Source: Candidatus Evtepia faecavium (GTDB lineage Bacteria; Bacillota; Clostridia; Oscillospirales; Oscillospiraceae). Taken from it: DNA of 64,000 nt. Shown here in pieces: positions 6,998 to 42,502 of this stretch. The DNA lies in the NCBI GenBank assembly GCA_019115545.1, contig DXDK01000046.1:39706-103705 (forward strand). The letters run 5' to 3'. Below the pieces are notes generated by a model that was not told the origin of the DNA, did no database searches, and saw only the letters and a list, made by a program, of their open reading frames with translations. The stretch's first letter is position 1. Each line of letters opens with the position of its first letter. The position numbers and the translations under genes were made by a program.

Positions 6998-7050
6998 ATG
7001 GGTGTGAGAAACTTGCAGAGAAATTCATTTTCATCGGAGGTATGTTTACC

Positions 7051-24297: not shown

Positions 24298-26952
24298 ATG
24301 AAACTGCTGGTGATCGACGGCAACTCCATCGTCAACCGGGCCTATTTTGGGATGCGTCCCCTGACCAACCAGGAGGGCTTTCCCACCCACGCCATCTACG
24401 GCTTTCTGAACATTCTCCGGCGGATGGAGAAGGAGCTGGACCCCGACGGGGTGTGCGTCACCTTCGACCGGAAGGAGCCCACCTTCCGCCACCTGGCCTA
24501 TGCCGGGTACAAGGCCCAGCGGAAGGGCATGCCCGAGGAGCTGGCGGTGCAGCTGCCGGTGCTGAAAGAGGTGCTGGACGCCATGAACATCCCCCGCTAT
24601 GAGCTGGCGGGGTGGGAGGCCGACGACCTCATCGGCACCATCACCCGCCTCGGCGAGCAGGCCGGCTGGGACTGCCGGGTGGCCACCGGGGACCGGGACG
24701 CCCTCCAGCTGGTGAGCGGGCAGACCTACGTGGAGCTGGTCACCACCCGCATGGGCCAGACCACCACCCAGGAGATGGACCCGGCGGCCTTCCGGGCGAC
24801 CTATGGCCTGGAGCCGGAGCGGATGGTGGACCTGAAGGCCCTCATGGGGGACACCTCCGACAACATCCCCGGGGTGCCCGGGGTGGGGGAGAAGACCGCC
24901 CTGGCCCTCCTCCACGAGAACGGCACCCTCCAGGCGGTCTACGACCACCTGGACCAGGAGACCCTGGAGGCCCGGCCGGTGGTGAAGAGGCGCCTGACGG
25001 AGGGGCGGGAGAGCGCCTTCCTCTCCTATGACCTGGTGACCATCCGCCGGGACGCCCCCCTGGACTTCTCCCCGGAGGACGCCCTGCGCAAGCCCGCCAA
25101 CGCCGCCCTGCTGCTGGAGCTCTTCCGGAAGCTGGACTTCCAGCGGATGATCGTCCAGATGGGCCTGGAGGCCCCCGACGGGGCCGCCCCGGCGGAGGAG
25201 ACCTGCCCCGCCCCCCAAATCGTGGAGTGGGTGGACAGCGACCAGCGGGCCCAGGCCCTGCTGGAGCAGTGGCAGGGGCAGACGGTGGGGGTGCTGGCCC
25301 TGCCGGACCTGACCACCCTGGCGGTGAGCTGGGGGGAGAAGGGGGACCAGGTGGCCCTGTTCCGGGAGACCGCCCTGCCGGGGTACCGGGACTTCCTCAA
25401 TGGCCTGCTGGGGGCGGGGATCCCCAAGGTGGGCTACCACATGAAGGACGTGATGCGCCAGGCCTTGGCCCGGGGGCTGCAGGCGGAGGGGTTCGTCTTT
25501 GACGGGGCCATCGCCGCCTATCTCCTGGCGCCCACCGACGGCAGCTATGACCCCGACAAGGTGGGGGCCAAGTACTTTGCCGTGGCCCTGCCCCCGGTGA
25601 AAGACTACCTGGGCGCCAAGGCCTGGCAGGGGGAGGAGAGCGCCCAGAAGGCCGGCCAGGCTCTGGCCGCCCACGCCTGCCTGCTGCCCGCCCTGTACCG
25701 CGCCCTGCCCCCCAAGCTCACGGAGCTGGGCCTGGCCCAGGTGTATGAGCAGGTGGAGCTCCCCCTCTGCCCCGTGCTGGCGGAGATGGAGGAGGCCGGC
25801 GTCCTGGTGGACCAGGACGCCCTGGCCCGCTTCGGCCAGACCCTGAAGACCGGCATCGACGTGCTCCAGGAGGAGATCTGGGCCATGGCGGGGAAGAAGT
25901 TCAACCTCAACTCCACCCAGCAGCTGGGGAAGGTCCTCTTCGAGCGCTTGGGCCTGCCCCCGGTGAAAAAGACCAAGACGGGGTACTCCACCAGTGCCGA
26001 GGTGCTGGAGAAGCTCCGGGACAAGCACCCCATCATCCAGCGGATCCTGGACTACCGGCAGCTGACCAAGCTCAACTCCACCTATGTGGAGGGGCTGGCC
26101 AAGGTCATCGCCCCCGACGGGCGGATCCACACCAGCTTCCAGAACACCGTCACCGCCACCGGGCGGCTGTCCTCCACGGAGCCTAACCTCCAGAACATCC
26201 CCGTGCGCACCGAGCTGGGGGCCCAGATGCGCACCATGTTCATCGCCCGGCCCGGCTGGGTGCTGGTGGACGCCGACTATTCCCAGATCGAGCTGCGGCT
26301 GCTGGCCCACATGGCGGGGGACGAGAAGATGATCGCCGCCTTCCGCTCCGGCCAGGACATCCACGCCCAGACCGCCAGCCAGGTCTTCGGCCTGCCCCCG
26401 GAGGAGGTCACCGGGGAGCTGCGCCGCCGGGCCAAGGCGGTGAACTTCGGCATCGTCTACGGCATCTCCGACTTCTCCCTGGCCCAGGACATCGGGGTGA
26501 GCCGCCAGGAGGCCGCCGACTATATGAACAAGTACCTGAACACCTTCTCCGGCGTCCGGGATTACATGGAACACGTCAAGGAACAGGCCCGGGCCGACGG
26601 GTACGTGGCCACCCTCATGGGCCGCCGCCGGTGGCTGCCGGAGCTGAAGTCCTCCAACTACAACCTCCGGGCCTTCGGGGAGCGGGTGGCCCTGAACATG
26701 CCCATCCAGGGCACCGCAGCCGACGTGATGAAGCTGGCCATGATCCGGGTGGCCCGGCGGCTGAAGGAGGAGGGGCTGCAGGCCCAGCTCATCCTCCAGG
26801 TCCACGACGAACTCATCGTGGAGTGCCCCCAGGAGGAGACCGACCGGGTGAAAACCCTCCTCACCCAGGAGATGGAGGGGGCGGGGGCCTTCTCCGTCCC
26901 CCTGGTGGCGGAGGCCGGGGCCGGCCGCAGCTGGGCCGAGGCCAAGGGCTGA
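24298..26952 (+). CDS. polA: DNA polymerase I
   Basis: MKLLVIDGNSIVNRAYFG is the 5'-3' exonuclease N-terminus. Polymerase motifs DYSQIELR, RRRAKAVNFGIVYG and QVHDEL are present. The track start at 24196 is an upstream extension. Confidence 0.96.
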   Translation: MKLLVIDGNSIVNRAYFGMRPLTNQEGFPTHAIYGFLNILRRMEKELDPDGVCVTFDRKEPTFRHLAYAGYKAQRKGMPEELAVQLPVLKEVLDAMNIPRYELAGWEADDLIGTITRLGEQAGWDCRVATGDRDALQLVSGQTYVELVTTRMGQTTTQEMDPAAFRATYGLEPERMVDLKALMGDTSDNIPGVPGVGEKTALALLHENGTLQAVYDHLDQETLEARPVVKRRLTEGRESAFLSYDLVTIRRDAPLDFSPEDALRKPANAALLLELFRKLDFQRMIVQMGLEAPDGAAPAEETCPAPQIVEWVDSDQRAQALLEQWQGQTVGVLALPDLTTLAVSWGEKGDQVALFRETALPGYRDFLNGLLGAGIPKVGYHMKDVMRQALARGLQAEGFVFDGAIAAYLLAPTDGSYDPDKVGAKYFAVALPPVKDYLGAKAWQGEESAQKAGQALAAHACLLPALYRALPPKLTELGLAQVYEQVELPLCPVLAEMEEAGVLVDQDALARFGQTLKTGIDVLQEEIWAMAGKKFNLNSTQQLGKVLFERLGLPPVKKTKTGYSTSAEVLEKLRDKHPIIQRILDYRQLTKLNSTYVEGLAKVIAPDGRIHTSFQNTVTATGRLSSTEPNLQNIPVRTELGAQMRTMFIARPGWVLVDADYSQIELRLLAHMAGDEKMIAAFRSGQDIHAQTASQVFGLPPEEVTGELRRRAKAVNFGIVYGISDFSLAQDIGVSRQEAADYMNKYLNTFSGVRDYMEHVKEQARADGYVATLMGRRRWLPELKSSNYNLRAFGERVALNMPIQGTAADVMKLAMIRVARRLKEEGLQAQLILQVHDELIVECPQEETDRVKTLLTQEMEGAGAFSVPLVAEAGAGRSWAEAKG

Positions 26953-26970
26953 GGAAAGGAGAGGTGCGCA

Positions 26971-27417
26971 ATGGACTGTAAACTGGTGCCCATGGACCGC
27001 TCCCACCTGGCGGGGGTGGCGGCCCTGGAGCGGCTGTGCTTCGCCGTCCCGTGGACCGAGGCCATGCTGGCCGAGGAGCTCTATAACCCCGCCGCCTCCT
27101 TCATCGTGGCCGAGGGGCCGGAGGGCCAGGTGCTGGGCTACGCCGGCCTGCACGTGGTGCTGGACGAGGGGTACATCGACAACGTGGCCGTCCGTCCCGA
27201 CTGCCGCCGCCAGGGGATCGGGGACCGGCTGCTGGACACCTTCTGCCGCTTCGGCCAGGCCCACCTGGCCTTCCTCTCCCTGGAGGTGCGGCCCTCCAAC
27301 GCCGCCGCCGTGGCCCTGTATGCAAAGCACGGCTTCCAGGAAGAGGGCCGGCGGAAGGACTACTACACCGAACCCAAGGAGGACGCCCTGATCCTCACCC
27401 GGAGGTTCCAGCCATGA
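26971..27417 (+). CDS. rimI: Ribosomal-protein-alanine N-acetyltransferase (GNAT)
   Basis: 148 aa with ...IDNVAVRPDCRRQGIGDRLL...LEVRPSNAAAVALYAKHGF. The sequence is RimI-like and sits near tsaD. Confidence 0.8.
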   Translation: MDCKLVPMDRSHLAGVAALERLCFAVPWTEAMLAEELYNPAASFIVAEGPEGQVLGYAGLHVVLDEGYIDNVAVRPDCRRQGIGDRLLDTFCRFGQAHLAFLSLEVRPSNAAAVALYAKHGFQEEGRRKDYYTEPKEDALILTRRFQP

Positions 27418-28055
27418 GGCTCCGGGCATTGACCCTAGGGGAGCTGGAAACCCTCCACCGCACCCGGATGGGCCAGGACTTCCCCCCGGAGGAGCTCAAG
27501 CCCTTTGCCGCCATGCAGACCCTCTATGAGGCCGGGGCCTACCACCCCATGGGGGCCTGGGAGGGGGAGGACATGGTGGGCTACGCCCTGCTGTGGGAGA
27601 GCCCCGGGACGGGGTACCTCCTTCTGGACTACCTGGGGGTGGAGGCCTCCCGCCGCAACGCCGGCCTGGGGGGCGAGATCCTCCGCCTGCTCCAGGGGGC
27701 CTTCCGGGACCGGAAGGGGATTCTGGTGGAGTCCGAGGCCCCGGAGGGGGACGACCGGGATGCCCTGCGGCAGCGGCGGATGGGATTTTACCGCCGCAAC
27801 GGCTTTGCCTTCCTGCCCTATACCTGCGTCCTCTTCGGGGTGCACTACGCCGTGGCCCTGTGCCCCCCGGCCGAGGGGGGAGGGGAGGCGGCCGTCATGG
27901 AGGCCCACCGGCAAGTCTACCGGGCCCAGCTGGCCCCCTGGGCCTATGAGAAGTTCGTGGAGATCCCCCGGGACCCCCAGCGCGCCGCCGCCCCGGCAGA
28001 GTCCTGGGCGGGGCAGACCAACCTCCCCGGCTTGGGGGAGAGGGAGAAAGGATGA
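27414..28055 (+). CDS. GNAT family N-acetyltransferase
   Basis: 213 aa with LDYLGVEASRRNAGLGGEIL...FYRRNGF. It has an ATGA overlap with rimI. Confidence 0.7.
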   Translation: MRLRALTLGELETLHRTRMGQDFPPEELKPFAAMQTLYEAGAYHPMGAWEGEDMVGYALLWESPGTGYLLLDYLGVEASRRNAGLGGEILRLLQGAFRDRKGILVESEAPEGDDRDALRQRRMGFYRRNGFAFLPYTCVLFGVHYAVALCPPAEGGGEAAVMEAHRQVYRAQLAPWAYEKFVEIPRDPQRAAAPAESWAGQTNLPGLGEREKG

Positions 28056-31609: not shown

Positions 31610-32509
31610 TCATTCCCCCTCCTGGGTGTTGTTCTGGGGGGTGGAGCGGCGGATGGAGAAGTCGAAGAACCGGTCCACGTTGGCCAGGGGATGGGGCGGC
31701 TTCCGGCGGACGATGTAGAAGTTGCTGGCCGAGACGGGGCTGGTGAGGGCCAGGCGCTTCACGTCCGGCCGGTGGACCGGCGGGGTGTCCAGCAAAACGG
31801 AGATGCCAAACCCCTGGGCCACCAGCTCCAGGATGAAGTCGGCGTCCTCCACCTGGTAGGCGATGTGCCACCGGTCCCGCACCGGGGCGAAGAGGCGGTC
31901 CACCGGGTCCCGCTGGCCGCTGAGCCAGGAGTAGGTCACATGGGGGTAGGGGAGGGTCTCCTCCAGGGTGACGGCCTCCTTTTCCGCCAGGGGATGGTCC
32001 AGGGGGACGGCCACCACCATGGACCGGCGCAGGACAGGGGCGTACTCCAGCTGGGGGTCGCTGAAGATCTTGGAGCAGAAGCCGATGTCCGCCTTTCCCT
32101 CGGTGACCGCCTGGCACACCTGGCTGGACATGCCGGTGGAGAACTCAAAGTCACAGCCGGGGTTGTCCTCCTTGAACTGCCGGCACAGCCGGGTCACCGT
32201 GGGGGCCACCAGGAGGGGGATGGTCTGCACCCGGATGGTGCCCACCCCCTCCTTCAGCATCTGGAAGTTGCGCAGGCAGCTGTCCGCCAGGGCGACGATC
32301 TGCCGGGCCTGGGGGAGCAGGGCCTTCCCGAACCGGCCCAGGGCGATGCCCCGGCCGCTCTTTTGAAAGAGGGTGACCCCCAGCTCCTTTTCCAGGGAGG
32401 CGATGGCGTGGCTCAGGCCGGACTGGGAGATGTTCAGCCGCTGGGCCGCCCGGCTGTAGTGCATCTCCTGGGAGAGGACCAGGAAGTAGCGCAGATGATC
32501 GATGTTCAA
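31610..32509 (-). CDS. LysR-family transcriptional regulator
   Basis: 299 aa: MNIDHLRYFLVLSQEMHYSRAAQRLNISQSGLSHAIASLEKELG (HTH) plus a substrate-binding domain. TTG start after GGGAGGTG. It is divergent from the aminotransferase gene. Confidence 0.92.
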   Translation of the reverse strand: MNIDHLRYFLVLSQEMHYSRAAQRLNISQSGLSHAIASLEKELGVTLFQKSGRGIALGRFGKALLPQARQIVALADSCLRNFQMLKEGVGTIRVQTIPLLVAPTVTRLCRQFKEDNPGCDFEFSTGMSSQVCQAVTEGKADIGFCSKIFSDPQLEYAPVLRRSMVVAVPLDHPLAEKEAVTLEETLPYPHVTYSWLSGQRDPVDRLFAPVRDRWHIAYQVEDADFILELVAQGFGISVLLDTPPVHRPDVKRLALTSPVSASNFYIVRRKPPHPLANVDRFFDFSIRRSTPQNNTQEGE

Positions 32510-32548
32510 AGGTTCACCTCCCTTTTTGGAAACAGTATACCATGACTG

Positions 32549-32613
32549 ATGCGAAAAAGGAATAGGTTCATGGGGTTCTGTGGGTTGATTTCCCGAAAAA
32601 GCCGCGGTTCAAT
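32549..32613 (+). promoter_or_regulatory. Operator box plus weak promoter A (aminotransferase)
   Basis: ATGCGAAAAAGGAATAGGTTCATGGGGTTCTGTGGG, then TTGATT, 17 nt, TTCAAT. Related copies occur at 34041 and 34957. Confidence 0.55.
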
Positions 32614-32669
32614 ACAGTTAAAGCATCCGCCGCCCGGCCCGGGCGGCCTGGAAAAGGAGGAGACCCCCT

Positions 32670-33986
32670 GTGAAGCGATACGTCACGGAGAAATCCAAGG
32701 CGCTGTTCCAGCGCACCACCCCCTACCTGGTGGACGGGGTGGGCAGTTCCTTCCACCGCAGCCGGTACCGGGAATACCCCGTGGCCATGACCCACGGGAA
32801 GGGCTCCAAGCTGTATGACGTGGACGGCAACGAGTACATCGACTATGTCCTGGGCTTCGGCCCTATGATCTTGGGCTACTGCCCCCCGGCGGTGGACCGG
32901 GCGGTGGCGGAGCAGCTGCGGAAGGGCACCCACTTCTCCGCCCCCACCCAGGACCTCCAGCGGCTGGCCCAGCGGCTGACGGAGCTCATCCCCGCCGCGG
33001 AGCAGGTGATGTTCCAGAACTCCGGCACGGAGGTGGTGATGTGCGCCCTCCGCCTGGCCCGGGCCTACACGGGGAAATACAAGGTGGTGAAGTTCGAGGG
33101 CCAGTACCACGGCTGGTCCGACGAGGAGAAGGTGAGCATCGACGCTGCCTCTGTGGAGGAGCTGGGCCCCCGGGAGCGCCCCAACAAGATCCTCCACACC
33201 AAGGGCCAGCGGCTGTCCTCGGCGGACGACCTCATCGTCCTGCCCTGGAACGACCTGGAGGCCCTGGAGCGCACCCTCACAGAGCAGGAGGGGGAGATCG
33301 CCGCGGTGCTCATGGAGCCCTGCATGTGCGACTCCGGCCCCATCCTCCCCCTGCCGGGGTATCTGGAGGGGGTGCGGAAGAGCACCCGCCGCCACGGGGT
33401 GGTGCTGATCTTTGACGAGGTGATCACCGGCTTCCGCCTGTCCCTGGGGGGCGCCCAGGCTTATTACGGGGTGACCCCGGATCTGGCCACCTTTGCCAAG
33501 GCCATCGCCGGGGGGTATCCCTTCGGGGCCGTGGTGGGGAAGCGGGAGATTATGTCCTGCGGGGTCCCCGCCTCGGGGACCTTCAACGGCAACCCCGTGG
33601 GGGTGGCCGCCGCCCTGGCCACCCTGGAGGAGCTCTCCCAGCCCGGGGTGTACCAGCGCTTTGACCGCCTGGGCCAGCTGCTGGAGGAGGGCTTCCGGGC
33701 CCTGGGGGAGAAGTACCACCGCAAGCTCTACCTGCGCCACATGGGGAGCATCTTCGTGCTGTACTTCGGCTACACCGAGGACGTGGCGGACTTCCGGGAC
33801 TGGCTGGGCCACGCCGACGTGGCGGCCTACGAGCGCTTCGTCGCCGGGTGCGAGGACTACGGCGTCCGCTTCACCGACCTGCGGGGCCGGGAGTACCTCT
33901 CCACCGCCCACACCGAGGAGGACATCCGCCGCACCCTGGCGGTGGCCGACCAGGTCCTGGGGGAGATGGCGCAGGAGGGCGTGTGA
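32670..33986 (+). CDS. Class-III PLP aminotransferase (glutamate-1-semialdehyde aminomutase-like)
   Basis: 438 aa with a GTG start after AAGGAGGAG. It has ...FQNSGTEVVMCALRLARAYTGK...LIFDEVITGFRL...DLATFAKAIAGGYP, with the PLP lysine in its usual context. Confidence 0.88.
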   Translation: MKRYVTEKSKALFQRTTPYLVDGVGSSFHRSRYREYPVAMTHGKGSKLYDVDGNEYIDYVLGFGPMILGYCPPAVDRAVAEQLRKGTHFSAPTQDLQRLAQRLTELIPAAEQVMFQNSGTEVVMCALRLARAYTGKYKVVKFEGQYHGWSDEEKVSIDAASVEELGPRERPNKILHTKGQRLSSADDLIVLPWNDLEALERTLTEQEGEIAAVLMEPCMCDSGPILPLPGYLEGVRKSTRRHGVVLIFDEVITGFRLSLGGAQAYYGVTPDLATFAKAIAGGYPFGAVVGKREIMSCGVPASGTFNGNPVGVAAALATLEELSQPGVYQRFDRLGQLLEEGFRALGEKYHRKLYLRHMGSIFVLYFGYTEDVADFRDWLGHADVAAYERFVAGCEDYGVRFTDLRGREYLSTAHTEEDIRRTLAVADQVLGEMAQEGV

Positions 33987-34040
33987 CCCGGCGCCAGCGG
34001 GGAACACCGAACAGATATTGTGAGACAAACCCCGGAAACC

Positions 34041-34105
34041 ATGCGGAAAAGGAATGGAACCATGGGGTTCTGTGCCTTGATTTTTCCCAGGGGATGGGGT
34101 TCAAT
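34041..34105 (+). promoter_or_regulatory. Operator box plus weak promoter B (MBL hydrolase)
   Basis: ATGCGGAAAAGGAATGGAACCATGGGGTTCTGTGCC, then TTGATT, 17 nt, TTCAAT. 29 of 36 upstream positions match box A. Confidence 0.55.
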
Positions 34106-34149
34106 GGAAGGGAAACCGGGCCCAGGCCCGCAGGAAGGAGAACCATGCA

Positions 34150-34926
34150 ATGGGTATGAAGATACATGTGCTGTACCTGGGGAAGATGGAGTTTCCCCGT
34201 TTCCGGCTGGTGGAGTGCCAGAACGAGGAGACCATGGTGGTCTCCCCGGCGGTGGCCATCCTCATCCAGCACCCCACCTTGGGGAACATCCTCTATGACA
34301 CCGGCAACAGCGAGGACTTCCTCCAGGTCTACACCAAGGAGATGCTCCACGACTACCCCATCACGGAGAACATCACCATTGTGGAGGCCCTGGCCAAAGC
34401 GGGCCTCACCCCGGAGGACATCGACCAGATCATCCTCTCCCACCTCCACTTCGACCACGCCGGGGGCCTGAAGCACTTCGTGGGCACCAAGGCCATCCGG
34501 CACGTGCTGGTGTCCGAGGCCGACCTGAAGCAGGCCTGGTGGGCGGTCACCACCGGCAACGGCGGGGCTTACATCCGGGAGCTCTTCGACGTGGAGGGGA
34601 TCCAGTTTGACACCATCTCCGACACCACCTGGCTGGCGGAGGACCTGGGCCTCTTCATCCAGGCCTCCCACACCCCCGGGGTCATCGGGATGATTTTGAA
34701 GACCGAGCACAACGGAACCATTCTCACCACCAGCGACGCCATCTACACCGCCGACAGCTACGAGAAGGCCCTGCCCCCCGGCGGCACCATCAACAAGACC
34801 ACCGACGAGTTCTTCGACAACCTCAAGCGTATCCAGGCCATGCAGGAGGGCTATAACGCCACCCTCCTCTTCGGCCACGACATCGACCAGATCCTCTCCT
34901 GGGTGGACCGGGGGGCCATCGACTGA
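34150..34926 (+). CDS. Metallo-beta-lactamase fold hydrolase (AiiA-like lactonase family)
   Basis: 258 aa with the zinc motif SHLHFDHAGG, plus a downstream HTPG and a late H/D. SD GGAAGGAG lies 9 nt upstream. Confidence 0.82.
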   Translation: MGMKIHVLYLGKMEFPRFRLVECQNEETMVVSPAVAILIQHPTLGNILYDTGNSEDFLQVYTKEMLHDYPITENITIVEALAKAGLTPEDIDQIILSHLHFDHAGGLKHFVGTKAIRHVLVSEADLKQAWWAVTTGNGGAYIRELFDVEGIQFDTISDTTWLAEDLGLFIQASHTPGVIGMILKTEHNGTILTTSDAIYTADSYEKALPPGGTINKTTDEFFDNLKRIQAMQEGYNATLLFGHDIDQILSWVDRGAID

Positions 34927-34956
34927 GCCCCGCCGGGCGAAAGGAGCCGTCAAAAG

Positions 34957-35026
34957 GCCGAAAAGGAACGAAACTCCATGGAGATTTTGAGAGGGAATTG
35001 ACAAAACCGAAAAAGTAGGGGACAAT
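34957..35026 (+). promoter_or_regulatory. Operator box plus weak promoter C (GRE genes)
   Basis: GCCGAAAAGGAACGAAACTCCATGGAGATTTTGAGAGGGAA, then TTGACA, 17 nt, GACAAT. It shares the CGnAAAAGGAA and CCATGG cores and the CAATGGAAG after the -10 with box B. Confidence 0.45.
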
Positions 35027-35057
35027 GGAAGCAGTCCCAAAAGAAAGGAGCATCGCT

Positions 35058-37316
35058 ATGACCACACCCACCGCTGGCGCCGCGTTAGGCAACCAGCTCC
35101 GCGCGGGCACCGTTGCCAAGGTCGGCAGCACGAAACGCATCCAGGAGCTCAACGGAATGCTCCACTCCAACCGGCCCAACGTGGACATCACCCGGGCCCG
35201 GGCCTATACCAAGGTCTACAAGGCCACCGAGGGGATGCCCAGCCTCATGCGCCGGTACAAGGCCTCCGCCGAGGTCTACCGCACCCTCACCGACAACGTC
35301 TACGACTACGAACAGCTGGTGGGCTGGCCCACCAAGCGCATCCGGGGGGCCAACTTCGCCATCGAGCTCCACGCCCACTGGCTGGCCGAGGACCTGCCCA
35401 ACCTCCGGGACCGGACCTACGACCCCTTTGAGATCACCGATGAGGACTACAAGGAACTGGAGGAGGAACTGCTCCCCTACTGGAAGGACAAGACCATGGC
35501 CGTCCAGTGGGGCCACTACGTGAGCAAGGAGGAGTGGAACCGGGGGCAGTTCGGCGGCGTGTCCGACGTGTCCAACTACCTCTGCGCCAACGGCTCCCAC
35601 TTCATCCCCGCCTGGACCGACGTGATCCAGCACGGCTTTGTGAAGTACTATGAGAAGGCCAAGGCCCTCCTGGCCGCCCTGGACCCCAACGACCCGGAAT
35701 CCATCGACAAGCGCATCTTCTACAACGGCATTATCGAGGTGCTGGAGGCCATCCGGGACTGGGGGGAGCGCCTGTCCGCCGCCTGCGCCCGCAAGGCCCA
35801 GCAGGAGAAAGACCCCGTCCGGAAGAAAGAGCTGGAGGACATGGCCGCCATGATGCAGCGGGTGCCCTGGGGCCCCGCCACCTCCTTCCACGACGCCTGC
35901 GAGACCGCCTGGGCGGTGTGCTTCTTCCTCTTCGTGGAGGGGGCCGGGCCCTCCATCACCTGGGGGCGGTTTGACCAGTACATGTATCCCTACTATAAGG
36001 CCGACATCGAAAAGGGCATCCTCACCCCGGAAAAGGCCATGGAGCTCATCGAGGAGCTCTATGTCCGGGTGACCTCCAACGTGTGGTTCCAGTCCACCCA
36101 GATGGCCTACATCTTCGGCGGGTACTACCGCTACCCCCACCTGGACGTGGGCGGCCTGGACGAGAACGGCAAGGACGCCTCCAACGAGCTGTCCTACCTC
36201 TGCCTGCGGGCCATGCGGTACGCCAAGACCACCTCCCCGGCGGTGAGCCTGCTGCTCCATCAGAAGACGCCGGATTCCCTCCTATACGAGGCCTGCGAAC
36301 TGGCCGCCGAGGGCATGGGCCACCCTTCCTTTTTCAACTGCGAGGGGCTGTATTCCATGCTGGAGCACCGGGCCAGCGGGCCGGAGGCCTATTCCAACTA
36401 CACCCGGAAGGACATTCTGAAGTTCGGCTCCCCCATCGGCTGCGTGGAGCCCGGGGCGGAGGGGCTGCAGTACGGCCACACCGATTCCGGCATCATCAAC
36501 GTGGCCGGGGCCGCCCTCATGGCGGTGACCAACGGGGTCATGCCCAGGGAGTCGGACAATATGTTCGCCGGCAAGCTCCTCACCTTCGAGAGCGGCGACC
36601 CGGCCAGCTTTGCAACCTTTGACCAGTTCTACGCCGCGGTGAAGGCCCAGATCAAGTACGCCATCGAGGAGGCCCACGCCAACCTCCTGGTGTGCGAGAA
36701 GCTCCTGGCCGAGCAGTTCAACCTGCCCACCTTCACCGTCCTGCTGGAGGGCGCCCTGGAAAAGGCCAAGGACGCCACCGCCGGCGGGGCCAAGGTCAAC
36801 GTGGGCCCCACCATGAACATGTGCGGCTTTGGCACCATGGTGGACTCGGTGGCCGCCATCAAGAAGGTGGTCTACCAGGACCACGCCGCCACCCTGCCCC
36901 AGGTCCGGGACGCCTGCATGGAAAACTTCCGGGGATACGAGGACCTGCGGGTGAAGCTCCAGGCCGCCCCCAAGTACGGCAACGACGACGACTTCGCCGA
37001 CGATATTGCCGCCGACCTGTGGGAGTGGTTCGCCCAGTGCACCATGCGCCTGAAGATGTACCGGGGCCACTACTGCGACGCGGCGGTGCAGATGGTCCAG
37101 TCCAACGTGGGCTACGGCGCCATGACCGGGGCCACCCCCAACGGCCGCCTGGCGGGGATGCCCCTGTCGGACACCATGTCCGCCACCCAGCAGGCCGACA
37201 CCCACGGCCCCACCGCCGCCGCCCGGAGCTATGGCAAGCTGGACTTCCCGGTGTACACCAACGGCACCCTGCTGAATATGTGGATCAGCCAGTCGGAGCT
37301 CATGGAAAAGCAGTGA
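35058..37316 (+). CDS. Glycyl radical enzyme, catalytic body lacking the Gly-radical domain (PFL2/dehydratase-type)
   Basis: 752 aa from the ATG 8 nt after AAAGGAG. The N-terminus is GRE-like (ITRARAYTKVYKATEGMPSLMRRYKA). The Cys loop is SPIGCVEPG. It ends ...NGTLLNMWISQSELMEKQ-TGA, just before the point where homologs carry the radical domain. Confidence 0.85.
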   Translation: MTTPTAGAALGNQLRAGTVAKVGSTKRIQELNGMLHSNRPNVDITRARAYTKVYKATEGMPSLMRRYKASAEVYRTLTDNVYDYEQLVGWPTKRIRGANFAIELHAHWLAEDLPNLRDRTYDPFEITDEDYKELEEELLPYWKDKTMAVQWGHYVSKEEWNRGQFGGVSDVSNYLCANGSHFIPAWTDVIQHGFVKYYEKAKALLAALDPNDPESIDKRIFYNGIIEVLEAIRDWGERLSAACARKAQQEKDPVRKKELEDMAAMMQRVPWGPATSFHDACETAWAVCFFLFVEGAGPSITWGRFDQYMYPYYKADIEKGILTPEKAMELIEELYVRVTSNVWFQSTQMAYIFGGYYRYPHLDVGGLDENGKDASNELSYLCLRAMRYAKTTSPAVSLLLHQKTPDSLLYEACELAAEGMGHPSFFNCEGLYSMLEHRASGPEAYSNYTRKDILKFGSPIGCVEPGAEGLQYGHTDSGIINVAGAALMAVTNGVMPRESDNMFAGKLLTFESGDPASFATFDQFYAAVKAQIKYAIEEAHANLLVCEKLLAEQFNLPTFTVLLEGALEKAKDATAGGAKVNVGPTMNMCGFGTMVDSVAAIKKVVYQDHAATLPQVRDACMENFRGYEDLRVKLQAAPKYGNDDDFADDIAADLWEWFAQCTMRLKMYRGHYCDAAVQMVQSNVGYGAMTGATPNGRLAGMPLSDTMSATQQADTHGPTAAARSYGKLDFPVYTNGTLLNMWISQSELMEKQ

Positions 37317-37355
37317 GTTCCCCCTTGGGAAACCGAAACGGAAAGGAGAATCCCT

Positions 37356-37652
37356 ATGACCACCATCCGTGACGTGCCTCTGAACTGCCCCGAGGCCACC
37401 TATGTGGAGCCCGCCTACAAAGAGGCCGGCATGCGCAACTTCACCAACCTGGTGCGCACCATGCTCAATGACTACGGCGTGTACCACGTGCAGTTCAACA
37501 CCATCAACAAGGAGACCCTCATCGACGCCAAGGCCCACCCGGAGAACTACCCCACCCTGATGGTCCGGGTGGCCGGCTACAGCGTCTACTGGACGGACAT
37601 CGCCGAGCGGGTTCAGGACGACATCATCAGCCGGACGGAGCACACATTTTAA
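37356..37652 (+). CDS. Stand-alone glycyl radical domain protein (98 aa)
   Basis: ...YHVQFNTINKETLIDAKAHPENYPTLMVRVAGYSVYWTDIAERVQDDIISRTEHTF carries the RVAGYS fingerprint. Its own SD AAAGGAG sits 7 nt before the ATG. It is in the same frame as the preceding ORF (39-nt gap). Confidence 0.85.
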   Translation: MTTIRDVPLNCPEATYVEPAYKEAGMRNFTNLVRTMLNDYGVYHVQFNTINKETLIDAKAHPENYPTLMVRVAGYSVYWTDIAERVQDDIISRTEHTF

Positions 37653-37821
37653 TCCCCATGGGGACCCACTGCGCTGGGCTCCCCATGGGAAGGGGAAGCA
37701 GCCCGACCCGCGCCTGGCGGGGCCAGGCACTCTCGGGCTGAGAAGTGTTTTTTCCGGGGCGCATGTCCCCGGAAAAAACGGATTGCATTTGGATTCCGCC
37801 GGCTGCGGCCGGCGGAATTCC
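37653..37821 (+). other. Hairpin-rich intercistronic spacer between the radical-domain gene and the activase
   Basis: Four stems: 37653-37690 (TCCCCATGGGGA...TCCCCATGGGA), 37712-37727, 37746-37780 (12-bp TTTTTTCCGGGG/CCCCGGAAAAAA) and 37791-37821 (TTCCGCCGGC/GCCGGCGGAA). Confidence 0.6.
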
Positions 37822-37855
37822 AGCATCCGGCGATGGAAGAAGGGAGACGAGGTCC

Positions 37856-38812
37856 GTGGAGGAAAAAACAGCCATCATTTTTGACATTGGGCGGTTCCGG
37901 AACACCGACGGGCCGGGGATCCGGACCATCATCTTCTTCAAGGGCTGCCCCCTGCGCTGCCGGTGGTGCAGCAACCCCTTCGGGCTGGAGCTCCACCCCC
38001 AGCTGGCGGTGAACCCCGCCAAGTGCACCGGCTGCGGCAAGTGCGTGGAGGTCTGTCCCCACGGGGTGAACGCCATCACCCCCGGGGAAAAGGTCCGGGT
38101 GGACTTCGCCGCCTGCCAGACCTGCGGCACCTGCACGGCGGCCTGTCCCGGCGGGGCCCGGGCCATCTCCGGCCGGGCCTACACCGCCCGGCAGCTCTAC
38201 CAGGAGGCGGCCAAGGACGCCGCCTTCTACCGCAAGGGCGGAGGTGGGGTCACCCTCTCTGGGGGGGAGGTCCTCCTCCAATACGAGGTGGCGGCGGAGA
38301 CCCTCCGGCTGTGCCGGACCAACTACCTCAACACCTGCATCGAGACCTCCGCCTACGCCCCCTGGGACCACCTCTGGCAGGTGGCCCAGTACTGCCACAC
38401 GGTGTTTGTGGACCTGAAGCACATGGACAACACCCAGCACCAGGCCATGACCGGGGTGGGCAATGGGGTCATCCTGGACAACATCAGCCGCCTCTGCCGG
38501 GAGCTCCCTCGCCGGGGGGGCAAGGTAATCGTCCGGATGCCCCTCATCCCCGGGTACAACGACGACGACGAGGCGGTGGCCGCCGGGGCCCGCTTCGTGG
38601 CGGAGCTGGACGGGGCGCCGGAGCTCAACCTTCTGCCCTACCACAACCTGGGGGAGAGCAAGTACGAGATGATCGGGGCGGCATACACCCTCCCCGGCCT
38701 GGAGAGCCGGAAGCGGCGGGACCCCCGCCTGCTGGCCATCCAGGCCCTCTGCCAGCAGCTGGCCCCCCGCAATCGGGTGAGCCTGGGGGGCGACGCCATT
38801 GATCTGGGGTGA
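37856..38812 (+). CDS. Glycyl-radical enzyme activating protein (radical SAM)
   Basis: VEEKTAIIFDIGRFRNTDGPGIRTIIFFKGCPLRCRWCSNP carries the CxxxCxxC motif. Two ferredoxin-like Cys clusters follow (CTGCGKCVEVCP, CQTCGTCTAACP). The GTG start at 37856 after AGGGAG is inferred. The track start at 37745 lies inside a hairpin. Confidence 0.85.
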   Translation: MEEKTAIIFDIGRFRNTDGPGIRTIIFFKGCPLRCRWCSNPFGLELHPQLAVNPAKCTGCGKCVEVCPHGVNAITPGEKVRVDFAACQTCGTCTAACPGGARAISGRAYTARQLYQEAAKDAAFYRKGGGGVTLSGGEVLLQYEVAAETLRLCRTNYLNTCIETSAYAPWDHLWQVAQYCHTVFVDLKHMDNTQHQAMTGVGNGVILDNISRLCRELPRRGGKVIVRMPLIPGYNDDDEAVAAGARFVAELDGAPELNLLPYHNLGESKYEMIGAAYTLPGLESRKRRDPRLLAIQALCQQLAPRNRVSLGGDAIDLG

Positions 38813-38885: not shown

Positions 38886-38932
38886 TTGACAAGAGGAAAC
38901 AAATGACTATAATGTACTTATACAAAAAGTAC
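38886..38932 (+). promoter_or_regulatory. Promoter plus palindromic operator of the GntR-ABC operon
   Basis: TTGACA, 16 nt, TATAAT (38908-38913), immediately followed by GTACTT-N7-AAGTAC (38914-38932). Confidence 0.6.
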
Positions 38933-38956
38933 AATCAATAACAAAGGAGGCGGGCC

Positions 38957-39337
38957 GTGGAGATCATCATCAGCAGCAACACCAGCAAACCCATCTATGA
39001 GCAGATCACCTCCCAGATCAAGGGGATGATCATGAGCGGGGAACTGCGAACGGGGGATCCCATTCCCTCCATGCGGGCCCTGGCCAAGTCCATCCACGTC
39101 AGCGTCATCACCGTGCAGAAGGCTTACGAGGACCTGCAGCGGGATGGATTCATCGAGACCACGGTGGGGCGGGGAAGTTTCGTCTCCGCCCGAAACAAGG
39201 ATTTCTATCAGGAAGAGCGGCAGCGGCAGGCGGAGGAACATCTCCAGCAGGCCGCCGACATCGGCCGGACCAGCGGCATCCCGGTGGAGAAGCTGGTGGA
39301 GCTGCTGCGTATGTTTTATGAGGAGGGAGATCTATGA
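38957..39337 (+). CDS. GntR-family regulator, YtrA subfamily
   Basis: 126 aa with a GTG start after AAAGGAGG. It has KPIYEQITSQIKGMIMSGELRTGDPIPSMRALAKSIHVSVITVQKAYEDLQRDGFI and a short C-terminal helical tail. Confidence 0.9.
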   Translation: MEIIISSNTSKPIYEQITSQIKGMIMSGELRTGDPIPSMRALAKSIHVSVITVQKAYEDLQRDGFIETTVGRGSFVSARNKDFYQEERQRQAEEHLQQAADIGRTSGIPVEKLVELLRMFYEEGDL

Positions 39338-40197
39338 GCGGCAATGCTCTGGCAGTCCAAGGCCTGACCAAACGATACAAGGACTTTGTCCTGGACAACG
39401 TCTCCTTTGTCGTACCCCGGGGAGCTATCGTGGGCCTGGTGGGAGAGAACGGCGCGGGGAAGAGCACCACCCTCCACGCCATCCTGGGGCTGATCCACCG
39501 GGACGGCGGTTCTGTGGAGCTGCTGGGCCGGGAGGACACGGCGGTAGACGAGGCCTTCCGGAACCAGATTGGGGTGGTTTTTGACGGCAGCAGCTACCCG
39601 GAGACCCTTACCCCCCGAAAGCTGAACCGGGTGTTCCAGTCTCTGTACCAGGGGTGGGACGAGGCCGGCTACTTTGCCCTGCTGGAGCAGCTGTCCCTGC
39701 CGGCGGACAAGAAGATCAAGGCCTTTTCCAAGGGGATGAAGATGAAGCTCTCCCTGGCGGTGGCCTTCTCCCACGGGGCCAAGCTGCTGGTGCTGGACGA
39801 GGCCACCAGTGGCCTGGATCCGGTGGTCCGGGACGATATCCTGGACCTCTGCCTGGGCTTTGTCCAGGAGGAGGACCGGGCCATCCTGGTCTCCTCCCAC
39901 ATCACCAGCGACCTGGAAAAGGTGGCCGACTACATCGTCTTCCTCCACAAGGGACGGGTGGTGTTCTGCAAGCCCAAGGATGAGCTGCGCTATCACTACG
40001 GCATTCTCCGGTGCGGGGCAGCTCAGTTTGAGGCCATTGACAAAGGAGAGGTTTTGGCCTGGCGCCGGCAGGACTACCAGTGGGAGGTCCTGGTGGCCGA
40101 CCGGGCCGCGGCCCAGCGGAAGTATCCCAAGGCGGTGGTGGACCCGGCCACCATTGACGAGATCATGCTGCTCTATGTAAAGGGGGAGAGACCATGA
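39334..40197 (+). CDS. ABC transporter ATP-binding protein
   Basis: Walker A GENGAGKST, signature FSKGMKMK, Walker B LLVLDEATSGLD. It has an ATGA overlap with the GntR gene. Confidence 0.92.
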   Translation: MSGNALAVQGLTKRYKDFVLDNVSFVVPRGAIVGLVGENGAGKSTTLHAILGLIHRDGGSVELLGREDTAVDEAFRNQIGVVFDGSSYPETLTPRKLNRVFQSLYQGWDEAGYFALLEQLSLPADKKIKAFSKGMKMKLSLAVAFSHGAKLLVLDEATSGLDPVVRDDILDLCLGFVQEEDRAILVSSHITSDLEKVADYIVFLHKGRVVFCKPKDELRYHYGILRCGAAQFEAIDKGEVLAWRRQDYQWEVLVADRAAAQRKYPKAVVDPATIDEIMLLYVKGERP

Positions 40198-40805
40198 AAG
40201 GCTTGCTTTTGAAAGACTTCTACCTGTGCTGTTCGGTGCTGTACCTGATGGTGCCGGTGGTGGCCATCCTGGGGGTTGCCCTGTCCCTGCTGGTCTCCAC
40301 CTGGGTGCTGGTGGTGCTGTCTACGGTGATGTTTGGGATGATCGCCGTATCCACCATCAACATGGACAGGGTTTCCGGCTGGCAAAAGGTGTCTGCCGTG
40401 CTGCCCCTGTCCCGGGCCCGGGTGGTGGACAGCAAGTATACCCTCTACCTCCTCCTCAGCGGGGCGGGGTTCCTGCTGGGCTTGGTGGTGGGCGGCGCGG
40501 TCTCCGGCATCCAGGGCGCCTTCGACTGGGCCACCATGGGGATCTACCTCGCCATCGGCGTGGACATGGCCCTTATGGCGGGGAGCTTCACCATCCCCCT
40601 CAGCTTCCTGCTGGGGGAGGAGAAGAATGTGCTGGCGGTGATCCTGGCTTATCCCATTGCGGCGGCGGCCTTCGTGGGGATCGTAGTGCCCCTGGGCGGG
40701 ACTGCCCTGGCCTGTGCCCTGGCGGCGGCGGTGGGGGCGGTGTGTTACCTCCTCTCCTGGATGCTGGCCCGGAAGGGCCTTGCCGCCCGAGAAGTAACCG
40801 GTTGA
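40194..40805 (+). CDS. ABC-2 type membrane protein
   Basis: 203-aa polytopic protein MKGLLLKDFYLCCSVLYLMV..., overlapping the ATPase gene by 4 nt. Confidence 0.75.
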   Translation: MKGLLLKDFYLCCSVLYLMVPVVAILGVALSLLVSTWVLVVLSTVMFGMIAVSTINMDRVSGWQKVSAVLPLSRARVVDSKYTLYLLLSGAGFLLGLVVGGAVSGIQGAFDWATMGIYLAIGVDMALMAGSFTIPLSFLLGEEKNVLAVILAYPIAAAAFVGIVVPLGGTALACALAAAVGAVCYLLSWMLARKGLAAREVTG

Positions 40806-40839
40806 CAGTGAGAGCAAGAGGCGCTACTATATATAGTAG
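40802..40839 (+). promoter_or_regulatory. Promoter plus 16-bp perfect palindrome (TetR operator candidate)
   Basis: TTGACA (40802-40807), 17 nt, TACTAT. CTACTATATATAGTAG at 40824-40839 covers the -10. Confidence 0.6.
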
Positions 40840-40910
40840 TACCCAACCCATTCCTGTGCCGCCGGCGGGTTCGGTCCGCCGGCGGCCCTTTGCTGTCAGG
40901 AGGCCCCGCT

Positions 40911-41513
40911 ATGACAGAACGGACCAAACCCGAGGACCTGCGGGTCCAGCGCTCCCGGGCGCTGCTGCTCCAGGCCCTCGTCTCCCTGCTCAACGAGAAA
41001 CCCTTTGACGAGATCCGGGTGACGGATCTCTGCGCCCGGGCGGGGGTCCATCGCTCCACCTTTTACGCCCACTTTACGGACAAGCTCCACCTGCTCACCT
41101 ACGGCATCCGGGAGCTGATGGACATCCTCATCGAGGCGCCCTCCCAGGAGCCGGGGCATTTCCAGCACGCAATGTACCGGGTGTTCAAGTACTTCAAGCT
41201 CCACCAGCAGGAGTACACCCTCCTTTTCCTCAACCCCCAGAACGCCGCGGCCAAGGACCTCTTCCTGAAGGAGTTCAGCCGCTGCCTGGAGCAGACCCTC
41301 CGGCAGCACCACCCCCAAGGAGGCGGGGAGGACCTCCGGGCCCGGAGCCTGTTCTTTACCGGGGGGCTGTTCATGGTGATGGCCTGGTGGCTGGAGCACG
41401 GCGCCCAGCCCGCCCCCCGGGAGATGGCCCGGCGGTTTGCCGGGATGGTCTCCCCGGGGTTCACCCTGCTGCCCCGGTCTTTGCCGGACGCCTGGGGCGG
41501 CTCGGCCGGGTGA
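40911..41513 (+). CDS. TetR/AcrR-family transcriptional regulator
   Basis: MTERTKPEDLRVQRSRALLLQALVSLLNEKPFDEIRVTDLCARAGVHRSTFYAHF. The ATG sits 7 nt after GGAGG. The track start at 40890 is an extension. Confidence 0.9.
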   Translation: MTERTKPEDLRVQRSRALLLQALVSLLNEKPFDEIRVTDLCARAGVHRSTFYAHFTDKLHLLTYGIRELMDILIEAPSQEPGHFQHAMYRVFKYFKLHQQEYTLLFLNPQNAAAKDLFLKEFSRCLEQTLRQHHPQGGGEDLRARSLFFTGGLFMVMAWWLEHGAQPAPREMARRFAGMVSPGFTLLPRSLPDAWGGSAG

Positions 41514-41548
41514 GGGGACAACCTGCGAGAGAAACGGAGGCACAAAAG

Positions 41549-42502
41549 ATGAAAACGATTTCCTGCGTACTGGGCCCGCTGCCGGTGGACCGGATGGGCA
41601 CCACCCTGGCCCATGAGCACATCTGCTGCGGGGACTGGTCCATGCGGGCCAACTTCGGCCCCCGGTTCTGCCCCGAGGAGAACCTGCTGGCCCGGGCGGT
41701 GGAACAGGTGAACCGGGCCAAGGCCGCCGGGGTGGCCACCATCGTGGACGGCACCGCCATCAACCTGGGGCGGGACATCCACCTGCTCCGCCAGGTCTCC
41801 CGGCTCACCGGGGTGAACCTGGTGGCCTCCAGCGGGTTTTACGACCAGGACGAGCCCTGGCTGGCGGGGCAGGTGGAGGGCTTCCTCTTCGACCTGCTGG
41901 ACCACGAGTGCAAGCACGGCATCGCCGGCACCGACTCCCGCCCGGGGCTCATGAAGTGCGCCGTGGGGACCCACGGCCTCACCCCCACCCGGGAGAAGAT
42001 CCTGCGCCTCACCGCACGGGTGGCGGTGGAGAACGACCTGCCCGTCTTCTGCCACCACGAGGTGAGCACCCGCTTAGGGCCCCAGATCCTGGACCTGCTC
42101 TGCGGGGAGGGGCTGGCCCCCCAGCGGATCATCCTGGGCCACGCCGGGGACAGTGAGGATTTGGATTACATCCTCTCCCTCCTGGACCGGGGCTGCTGGA
42201 TCGGCCAGGACCGCTGGCCCTACGACGGCCGGTTCAACACCGTGGCCAGCCGGGTGGAGACCATGGTCCAGCTGCGGCAACGGGGCCTGCTGGACCGGGT
42301 GCTCCTCTCCCACGACCTGTGCGTCTATCTGGGGTTCTGGGAGTCCATGGAGGCCTCCTTCGCCCGGGAGACCTTGTACGAGGGGGCCGACTTCACCTAC
42401 CTCTTCCGGACGGTCTTCCCCAAACTCCAGGCGGCCGGCTTCCCCCAGGAGGAGCTGGACCGGCTGATGACGGAGAACCCCCGGAACTTTTTTGCCGGGT
42501 AA
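41549..42502 (+). CDS. Phosphotriesterase-family (PTE/PHP, amidohydrolase superfamily) protein
   Basis: 317 aa from the ATG after ACGGAGG. MKTISCVLGPLPVDRMGTTLAHEHICC carries the HxH metal motif, with later ...VFCHH... and ...LLSHDL... The track ORF start at 41387 is an extension. Confidence 0.85.
   Translation: MKTISCVLGPLPVDRMGTTLAHEHICCGDWSMRANFGPRFCPEENLLARAVEQVNRAKAAGVATIVDGTAINLGRDIHLLRQVSRLTGVNLVASSGFYDQDEPWLAGQVEGFLFDLLDHECKHGIAGTDSRPGLMKCAVGTHGLTPTREKILRLTARVAVENDLPVFCHHEVSTRLGPQILDLLCGEGLAPQRIILGHAGDSEDLDYILSLLDRGCWIGQDRWPYDGRFNTVASRVETMVQLRQRGLLDRVLLSHDLCVYLGFWESMEASFARETLYEGADFTYLFRTVFPKLQAAGFPQEELDRLMTENPRNFFAG

Follow-up and report, generated by a model that had tools for sequence, protein, structure and literature searches.

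The 64-kb window analysed here (the whole stretch of 64,000 nt taken from contig DXDK01000046.1 of Candidatus Evtepia faecavium) encodes a glycyl radical enzyme (GRE) in two separate pieces, and this two-piece architecture is conserved throughout a family of homologs. The gene for the large, catalytic subunit (35058–37316, plus strand, 752 aa) specifies a full-length PF02901 domain (513 bits, positions 3–647 of 647) without a match to PF01228, and large-piece homologs of 752–755 aa also contain PF02901 only. The RVxG[FWY]-type radical motif (RVAGYS) is located not on this catalytic polypeptide, but on a separate protein of 98 aa encoded by the next gene (37356–37652, plus strand), which carries a stand-alone PF01228 domain. 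Between the two pieces lie a TGA stop codon (37314–37316), 39 nt, and the ribosome binding site (RBS, GGAAAGGAG) of the small gene. On the 786-position TIGR01774 model the large piece covers positions 3–710 and the small piece positions 710–785, placing the split point at position 710. The split had not been reported in an earlier note on this DNA, made from the sequence alone; the GRE is not a single gene, with the radical domain residing on an open reading frame (ORF) of its own. Judged by sequence, the pair has the GRE features examined, except that the radical motif does not share a polypeptide with the catalytic domain. The large ORF opens at position 35025 (763 aa), with its likely start at the ATG at 35058, preceded by the RBS GAAAGGAG and giving a protein of 752 aa, in agreement with the closest homologs. 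The pair is followed by a gene for a radical-SAM GRE activase (37856–38812, plus strand, 318 aa), which scored 304 bits against TIGR02494 (cut-off 174), and has a Radical_SAM domain, two Fer4 motifs and the cluster motif CPLRCRWC. All proteins of the locus carry generic names only in the databases. We consider it somewhat probable that the locus specifies a two-polypeptide GRE with its activase under the control of a LysR-family regulator, acting as a dehydratase-type eliminase which makes an aldehyde or ketone, with a metallo-β-lactamase-fold (MBL) hydrolase and an aminotransferase as accessory enzymes.

A homolog scan with one genome per species returned 67 loci (numbered L0xx where a locus has to be named). 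Family pairs consisted of a large and a small piece, with the large piece 41–95% identical to the query, and all scan matches at ≤32% identity were ordinary fused GREs. A stop codon separated the large from the small piece in each of the 55 family pairs, with a frame relation that varied between pairs, and the small ORF had its own Shine-Dalgarno sequence in 53 of the 55 pairs and in 54 of them its conservation exceeded that of the large piece. The intergenic spacers were mostly tens of nt in length and reached up to ~130 nt, next to a single spacer of ~900 nt in L046. The split family is found in Bacillota, Coriobacteriia, delta-proteobacterial lineages and Desulfuromusa, with hosts including Evtepia species, Clostridium viride, Vagococcus acidifermentans, Collinsella ihumii, Atopobiaceae, Anaerovoracaceae, Syntrophobacteraceae, Paradesulfitobacterium, Desulfuromusa, Eubacterium ramulus and Clostridium magnum. 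Among 1.84 billion cluster representatives, the next relative beyond the Evtepia cluster was a 754-aa protein of 42% identity with the same end point, and the nearest fused GREs in this search had ≤37% identity. In neighbour-joining trees with 46 fused representatives the split family was monophyletic in 100 of 100 bootstraps, which points to one old split event. The junction contains approximately 30 extra, family-specific residues at the position where fused relatives have a short linker, and these residues belong in part to the tail of the large piece and in part to an extension at the N-terminus of the small piece, in which Y-K-x-x-G is conserved.

These observations bear directly on the alternative that the split results from a sequencing or assembly error, or from recent pseudogenisation of an ordinary fused GRE. 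The two ORFs in the window do share one frame and are parted by a single TGA and 12 codons, but the stop recurs in 55 independent assemblies from many phyla, and roughly half of the pairs show another frame relation, so that a general read-through is impossible. The conserved stop, the frames, the RBS of the small ORFs with their stronger conservation, the monophyly and the junction residues together exclude the pseudogene, assembly-error and read-through explanations for practical purposes, and we regard this alternative as extremely improbable.

The best 120 homologs of the small piece were all stand-alone proteins of 77–159 aa. Its AlphaFold model (pLDDT 83) can be superposed on the radical domains at the C-termini of solved GREs, as well as on the NMR structure of YfiD with a TM-score of 0.81 (normalised by YfiD length) and an rmsd of 2.0 Å. 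This likeness, together with scores of 73 bits for GrcA3 and 63.5 bits for GrcA2, raises the possibility that the small ORF is a spare part of the GrcA/YfiD type which serves another, full-length GRE, with the large ORF either decaying or acting without a radical. However, all GrcA models remained below their cut-offs (GrcA 47 versus 170 bits, GrcA2 63.5 versus 145, GrcA3 73 versus 158), and the best matches were C-termini of eliminases (HpsG, 87 bits). The small gene directly follows the large gene and precedes the activase gene in 55 pairs, the large piece retains the invariant Cys loop and pocket over 41–95% divergence, and the split family is monophyletic; we regard this explanation as very unlikely.

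Several loci showed variations on the two-piece arrangement. A second, diverged copy of the large piece adjoins the first in L019, L022, L029 and L037; this second copy has its own small-piece gene in L019, L029 and L037, and none was detected beside the second copy of L022. A lactonase-like MBL gene is located between the large and small genes of L046 (L046:4184–5065). In L045, a fused 821-aa GRE with its own activase (L045:723–4121) lies divergently beside a split pair with a second activase, and this organism thus keeps the fused and the split architecture adjacent to each other.

The large subunit did not reach any curated equivalog cut-off, with the best match being the CutC model TIGR04394 (478 bits versus 1050). 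The glycerol/propanediol dehydratase model TIGR01774 gave 406 bits versus a cut-off of 678, a score that is low partly because the C-terminus is absent from the large piece. The closest solved structures by sequence were CutC, followed by 1,2-propanediol dehydratase (9rco) and glycerol dehydratase, and the identity with CutC-type proteins was about 31–35%, with no characterised GRE being closer. The structure 9RCO was considered as a relative with a known new function, and was rejected as such, being a propanediol dehydratase. The Cys loop GCVE is present at residues 472–475 (numbering of the 763-aa ORF), with Cys473 and Glu475 invariant in the family, and an adjacent Cys-Cys pair is absent, as the earlier note had reported. 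A June 2026 review of the GRE superfamily uses the C-x-E motif of the Cys loop as a criterion for 1,2-eliminases, and isomerase-type GREs likewise keep this motif. The note had placed the enzyme among the eliminase-type GREs, distinct from those characterised, and had proposed a comparison with the latter. This assignment was upheld, as the CutC, HpsG and HypD models scored far below their cut-offs, and the substrate residues of CutC are replaced.

We mapped the CutC pocket onto the large subunit using a HMMER alignment, and checked this with an independent MAFFT alignment, in which the known residues of a CutC-type representative appear at their expected positions with an offset of +2. Cys489, Glu491, Thr502 and Phe389 of CutC are retained as Cys473, Glu475, Thr486 and Phe364, respectively, and Tyr208, Asp216, Thr334, Phe395 and Tyr506 are replaced by Asn184, His192, Pro309, Tyr370 and Ile490. 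The pocket columns are nearly invariant over the whole split family, which argues for one substrate or for closely related substrates. Four of the seven pocket sites compared (N184, H192, F364 and Y370) resemble a propanediol-dehydratase-like representative (N158, H166, F334 and F340), and the three remaining sites carry smaller residues than this representative. Published structural comparisons equate Asp216 of CutC with His160 of HypD and Gln193 of IslA, and the corresponding His of glycerol dehydratase protonates the leaving hydroxyl according to the June 2026 review. Based on these pocket residues, the enzyme is most likely a C–O-cleaving, dehydratase-type eliminase with a pocket somewhat larger than that of propanediol dehydratase. 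The sulfonate anchor of IslA and HpsG, made up of two Arg and a Gln, is absent, with Ala188 at the site of IslA Arg189 and His192 at the site of Gln193, and the models of sulfonate enzymes gave 427 bits (HpsG) and 363 bits (HpfG), each versus a cut-off of 1000. The HypD sites Asp278, Ser334 and Tyr450 correspond to Pro309, Phe364 and Ile490, and the HypD model gave 343 bits versus 1100.

CutC being the closest characterised homolog (E-values from 1e-132 to 1e-118), and an aminotransferase and PucR regulators of amino compounds being present in some loci, the enzyme could instead be a CutC-like C–N lyase which eliminates ammonia or an amine from an amino alcohol. We think this unlikely, since the amine-binding Asp216 of CutC is replaced by His192, a His at this site being the pattern of C–O cleavage; the Asn, Pro, Tyr and Ile found at the sites of CutC Tyr208, Thr334, Phe395 and Tyr506 likewise speak against it, as does the score of the large piece with TIGR04394. 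A carnitine-type reading, suggested by CoA-transferase III, crotonase and acyl-CoA dehydrogenase neighbours in other members of the family, was rejected because the trimethylammonium-binding Asp is absent.

For the dehydratase-type eliminase, the following reaction course can be proposed. The activase would place the radical on Gly74 of the small subunit (in RVAGYS), which would then dock into the large subunit, where the radical would pass to Cys473 as it does in fused GREs. The resulting thiyl radical would abstract a hydrogen from the carbinol carbon of the substrate, Glu475 would deprotonate the hydroxyl, and His192, which is equivalent in position to HypD His160 and to His166 of the propanediol-dehydratase-like representative, may assist the loss of the neighbouring hydroxyl, with an aldehyde or ketone as the predicted elimination product. 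In the Evtepia clade, the MBL hydrolase probably acts on a lactone or ester to yield the substrate. In the species of the window and in two others, a HemL-like omega-transaminase appears to have been inserted behind a duplicated promoter box, and this enzyme probably turns the carbonyl product (an aldehyde) into an amine, a role that would be held by aldehyde and alcohol dehydrogenases in other clades.

Clustering of the ORFs around 57 family loci showed that the genes conserved family-wide were those for the large piece (57 loci), the small piece (51 loci) and the activase (48 loci), with no others, and the LysR (16 loci) and lactonase-like MBL genes (15 loci) were confined to the Evtepia clade. 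The clade at 61% identity has a CoA-acylating aldehyde dehydrogenase (ALDH), a zinc-type alcohol dehydrogenase (Zn-ADH), phosphate butyryltransferase, a major facilitator superfamily (MFS) transporter and a sigma-54 activator as neighbours. In Coriobacteriia and others, the neighbours included phosphate butyryltransferase (Ptb), a butyrate-type kinase, an SSF symporter, a nitroreductase, an old yellow enzyme (OYE)-type enoate reductase, DUF3237, a flavodoxin-like protein, DUF1097 and an iron-type alcohol dehydrogenase (Fe-ADH). Delta-proteobacterial, Desulfuromusa, Paradesulfitobacterium and metagenome members share a neighbour group with tungsten-type aldehyde:ferredoxin oxidoreductase (AOR), family III CoA-transferase, crotonase or MaoC, acyl-CoA dehydrogenase, thiolase, an IclR regulator, and MFS or TRAP transporters. 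In the E. ramulus/C. magnum clade, two MBLs occur near the GRE (a second lactonase-like type and a further one), accompanied by Zn-ADH, a 3-hydroxyacyl-CoA-dehydrogenase-like enzyme, NCS1/NCS2 permeases, PucR and a three-subunit molybdenum (Mo) enzyme of the aldehyde-oxidase/xanthine-dehydrogenase family. In four loci of this clade (L048, L049, L057 and L066), the split GRE is clustered with the Mo hydroxylase, PucR, NCS1/NCS2 and two MBL-fold hydrolases, and this cluster looks like a pathway for an N-heterocycle or for aldehyde oxidation. An alpha/beta-hydrolase and a SnoaL-like protein are located between the small subunit and the activase in L073 and L074. A vitamin-B6 reading, based on matches to 4-pyridoxolactonase and FHMPC dehydrogenase and on the NCS1 permease, was too weak, with scores far below the cut-offs.

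Two themes recur in these neighbourhoods, an aldehyde-handling enzyme recruited in at least five different forms, and a hydrolase recruited in three different forms. The earlier note had stressed that the usual partners of eliminases are absent from the window. This was confirmed using tblastn over the whole 64 kb, where probes for shell proteins, CoA-acylating ALDH, Fe-ADH, Zn-ADH, AOR, Ptb and Buk detected nothing, and it applies to the Evtepia lineage; elsewhere in the family, ALDH, Fe- and Zn-ADH, AOR, phosphotransacylase and butyrate-type kinase do occur. Microcompartment shell genes were found neither in 70 loci (L001–L070) nor in the window with hand-written probe sequences. We read the product of the GRE as an aldehyde on account of the aldehyde-handling neighbours in several clades, and the organic-anion-type transporters (TRAP DctP, MFS) suggest that the substrate bears a carboxylate. 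Glutamate-1-semialdehyde, on which HemL naturally acts, is itself an omega-oxo-carboxylate, and the semialdehydes of succinate and glutarate are central intermediates in the fermentation of γ-aminobutyrate (GABA) by Evtepia gabavorous and of 5-aminovalerate by C. viride. One tentative candidate, which we rate as rather improbable, is a vicinal diol with a carboxylate group, such as 3,4-dihydroxybutyrate or 4,5-dihydroxypentanoate derived from a hydroxy-lactone. Dehydration of such a dihydroxy-acid would yield succinate or glutarate semialdehyde, feeding a fermentation of the GABA/5-aminovalerate type, and a semialdehyde product would explain why the Evtepia operon needs no dehydrogenase. E. 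gabavorous has been listed among GABA-eating bacteria (PMC12134241).

In the window, the LysR-family regulator (31610–32509, minus strand; HTH_1 and LysR_substrate domains) is divergent from the operon, which starts with the class-III (HemL-like) aminotransferase (32670–33986, plus strand; Aminotran_3, 227 bits), a pyridoxal phosphate (PLP) enzyme with its PLP lysine in FAKAIAGGYP, followed by the lactonase-like MBL-fold hydrolase (34150–34926, plus strand; Lactamase_B, HLHFDHAGG). These three assignments of the earlier note agreed with both the sequence and the domain matches. The best models for the aminotransferase were GntE (372 bits) and HemL (352–371 bits), all below cut-off (for HemL, TIGR00713 at 352 versus 527 bits and PRK00062 at 371 versus 398), and the closest solved structures were glutamate-1-semialdehyde aminomutases (HemL, E-values 1e-80 to 1e-88), with no hem genes seen among the neighbouring genes examined. 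For the MBL hydrolase, the best NCBIfam matches were 4-pyridoxolactonase, AhlS, AiiA and AttM, with 86–99 bits versus cut-offs of 325–475, the closest solved structures were the lactonases GcL and AiiA, and the motifs HLHFDH, SHTPG, SDAIY and FGHD, including those for metal binding, are visible in its sequence. These matches place it in the lactonase-like branch and no more precisely, and the note's view of an AiiA-like hydrolase is in line with the family and structure matches, all of which lie below equivalog cut-offs.

The two enzymes differ in how firmly they are linked to the GRE. The MBL gene is immediately 5′ of the GRE in 15 Evtepia-clade loci, with a LysR homolog beside 16 related loci, and most other Evtepia loci have the order LysR-MBL-GRE, but no lactonase-like MBL gene accompanies the GRE in C. 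viride, Vagococcus, Collinsella and delta-proteobacterial members. The two lactonase-like MBL groups of the family (C4 and C22) share motif-level similarity only, and thus represent independent recruitments rather than orthologs. The aminotransferase is linked to the GRE in three species only (that of the window, E. gabavorous and L012), corresponding to three of the ~14 Evtepia-clade genomes with a resolved LysR-MBL region, and nowhere else in the family. Its 72%-identical homologs are found elsewhere in operons with PucR, amino-acid permease, aminotransferase and short-chain dehydrogenase/reductase (SDR) genes without a GRE, for example as a compact operon of other Clostridia (L079/L080:3949–9075), and in L012 (~4000–9113) a module of PucR, MFS transporter, aminotransferase and SDR genes lies between the LysR and MBL genes. 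This suggests that the aminotransferase module is a mobile catabolic unit for an amino compound, and the module, taken with the duplicated box, indicates that the aminotransferase was recently inserted between the LysR and MBL genes.

The earlier note had envisaged an obligatory three-enzyme pathway, in which a single amine-bearing or cyclic ester/amide substrate undergoes ring opening or deacylation by the MBL hydrolase, elimination by the GRE and transamination by the aminotransferase. The three genes are indeed adjacent and co-oriented, with a copy of the LysR-associated box in front of both the aminotransferase and the MBL gene; E. gabavorous shows aminotransferase, MBL and GRE in matching order, hydrolases recur beside the GRE in three clades, and the PucR, NCS1/NCS2 permeases and Mo-hydroxylase of the clade at 42% identity hint at nitrogen-heterocycle or amide chemistry. 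The survey of genome neighbourhoods that the note had proposed, with a lack of conserved linkage as the outcome that would refute its reading, did not bear out the aminotransferase as a conserved partner, given its few linkages within the Evtepia clade, their lack outside it, and the GRE-free operons in which its homologs normally occur. The linkage of the MBL hydrolase was upheld in part, holding within the Evtepia clade and failing in most other members despite their near-invariant GRE active site; likewise, the idea of a hydrolase beside the GRE stood for hydrolases in general, with the lactonase-like MBL itself being clade-bound. We therefore doubt the obligatory pathway, which has some possibility at best; the idea of unusual partners for the GRE is weaker than it first appeared, and the interest of the locus lies in its conserved two-piece architecture.

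Returning to the two-polypeptide dehydratase with accessory MBL and aminotransferase, a number of points weigh against it. Three of the seven pocket sites differ from the propanediol-dehydratase-like representative, with P309, T486 and I490 in place of His, His and Phe. The model of the large subunit (17 sequences, ≥91% identical) had a pLDDT of 39.6 and was discarded, and the roles of the residues hence rest on the alignment to CutC and on published equivalences. The family-specific Arg369, which may or may not point into the pocket, was not relied on as an anion anchor. Neither a transporter nor an aldehyde dehydrogenase was counted with the locus in the window, and the aminotransferase may have an earlier place in the pathway than the GRE, or no functional relation with it. 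Finally, the neighbourhoods differ widely between clades, as in the contrast between enoate reductase, DUF3237, flavodoxin and DUF1097 in one group, CoA-transferase III and crotonase in another, and Mo-hydroxylase, PucR and NCS1 in a third, and the substrate may thus differ by clade or be nitrogen-containing.

The related promoter boxes which the earlier note had reported in front of the aminotransferase and MBL genes proved to be real. They form a 65-nt direct repeat, with copy 1 located 5′ of the aminotransferase gene (32549–32613, plus strand) and copy 2 located 5′ of the MBL gene (34041–34105, plus strand), showing 74% identity over the 65 nt. The 14-nt core of the box, CATGGGGTTCTGTG, is restricted to these two sites in the 64 kb, versus 0.04 occurrences expected by chance. 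Alignment of upstream regions showed that other Evtepia species keep the box ahead of whichever gene comes first after LysR, and that the conserved box carries a promoter-like pair TTGATT-N17-TTCAAT; an exact-pattern search for the box in related loci gave no match, the conservation being visible only after this alignment. The GRE gene itself is preceded by a sigma-70-like promoter (TTGACA-17-GACAAT, 10/12 matches, 34998–35026, plus strand). The small-subunit and activase genes are separated by a structured spacer of ~200 nt with four hairpins (37653–37855, plus strand), which has a minimum free energy of -119 kcal/mol (z = -5.4 versus shuffles) and includes a terminator-like hairpin with a U6...A6-clamped stem at 37746–37780. 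The longest ORF of the activase opens at 37745, but its likely start is the GTG at 37856 (RBS AAGGGAG), and the ortholog of E. gabavorous also has 318 aa. The hairpin spacer may lower the level of activase or stabilise the upstream mRNA.

The locus is flanked on its 5′ side by pseudouridine kinase and glycosidase genes, and on its 3′ side by genes for an ABC-2 transporter, a TetR regulator and a phosphotriesterase (PTE)-family protein, followed by the S10 ribosomal protein operon (44231 onward). The GRE locus thus lies just upstream of the S10 operon in the window, and is immediately upstream of it in other Evtepia genomes, a conserved position which is unusual for a LysR-controlled catabolic operon. 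The ABC/TetR/PTE block (38886–42502) starts with a perfect sigma-70 consensus (TTGACA-16-TATAAT, 38886–38913), and comprises an ABC ATPase (39334–40197), an ABC-2 permease (40194–40805), a TetR regulator (40890–41513) and a phosphotriesterase-family protein (~41555–42502), a family which counts lactonases among its members. This block is missing at the corresponding position in E. gabavorous, and a PTE gene is also found near the GRE locus of L016. At 24148–27429, the longest ORF (minus strand, 1093 aa) is without a Pfam match and overlaps a plus-strand ORF encoding DNA polymerase I (24196–26952), a reminder that in this genome of 65% GC, long ORFs on the antisense strand are spurious.

A natively split GRE was not described in the full-text literature searched, although a mention outside the open-access literature is possible, and searches on Evtepia and glycyl radicals, and on GREs in the host species, returned nothing relevant. 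How the activase gains access to a glycine that is buried in the folded barrel of a GRE is a standing problem, and the radical domain is thought to swing out for this purpose. The June 2026 superfamily review names activation as the main practical bottleneck in the study of new GREs, knows spare-part proteins only for formate lyases, and does not mention a natural split GRE; the split family extends the spare-part idea beyond this group. We regard it as possible, albeit on balance doubtful, that the locus represents both a new architecture, with an obligate heterodimer whose ~10-kDa free radical domain is activated off the enzyme and is docking or exchangeable, and a new reaction, dehydrating a lactone-derived hydroxy-acid to an omega-semialdehyde that feeds the GABA-type fermentation of Evtepia. 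If this were true, the small subunit would be a built-in, replaceable protein cofactor. With a separate radical domain of 98 aa, experiments could address how the enzyme is activated, how the domain docks, how the radical is transferred and how a domain damaged by oxygen is replaced, and the two-protein design might be copied to ease the activation of other GREs. The family also forms a well-delimited eliminase clade, whose substrate would extend gut metabolism by a new anaerobic reaction, and cultivable hosts are available in E. gabavorous KLE1738, Clostridium viride DSM 6836, Vagococcus acidifermentans LMG 24798, Eubacterium ramulus, Collinsella ihumii and Clostridium magnum.

Comparison with known systems places the accessory enzymes and the two subunits as follows. 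The MBL hydrolase shares HLHFDH, the further His/Asp/His ligands and D-x-x-Y with the lactonases AiiA, AttM, GcL and 4-pyridoxolactonase, but in contrast to the acyl-homoserine lactone (AHL) lactonases it is encoded in a GRE operon without a quorum-sensing context, and its scores are below the cut-offs. The aminotransferase has the class-III fold and PLP lysine of HemL and GntE, but misses all of their cut-offs and has no tetrapyrrole genes nearby. The large subunit shares with CutC (PDB 5FAU, 5A0U), its closest characterised homolog, the PFL-like barrel, the GCVE loop and the four conserved pocket residues, whereas CutC is a single polypeptide which is usually encoded in a microcompartment locus, and has Asp rather than His at the position that binds trimethylammonium. 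With the B12-independent diol dehydratases (1,2-propanediol dehydratase 5I2G/9RCO; glycerol dehydratase 1R8W) it has in common the C-x-E loop, the His at the beta-1 site and the Asn/His/Phe/aromatic pattern at four pocket sites, as well as the aldehyde-handling neighbours found in other clades of the split family; the dehydratase-like representatives are ~30–31% identical, differ at pocket sites 309, 486 and 490, and do not have a separate radical domain. The small subunit resembles GrcA/YfiD in being a small stand-alone glycyl radical domain predicted to work in trans with a large catalytic body. GrcA, however, is encoded elsewhere in the genome and rescues an oxygen-cleaved PFL that is normally full-length, whereas the large subunit of the split family is never found with a radical domain, the small gene is always next to it, and the sequence of the small protein derives from eliminase C-termini; the small protein would thus be an obligate partner instead of a repair part. 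Other GREs of more than one polypeptide are known, such as HPAD with its gamma subunit, BSS with beta and gamma subunits and MASS with a delta subunit, and the June 2026 review describes the small subunits of such enzymes as Fe-S or rubredoxin-like accessories, with the radical staying on the large subunit. Unlike these accessories, the small subunit of the split family is the radical domain itself.

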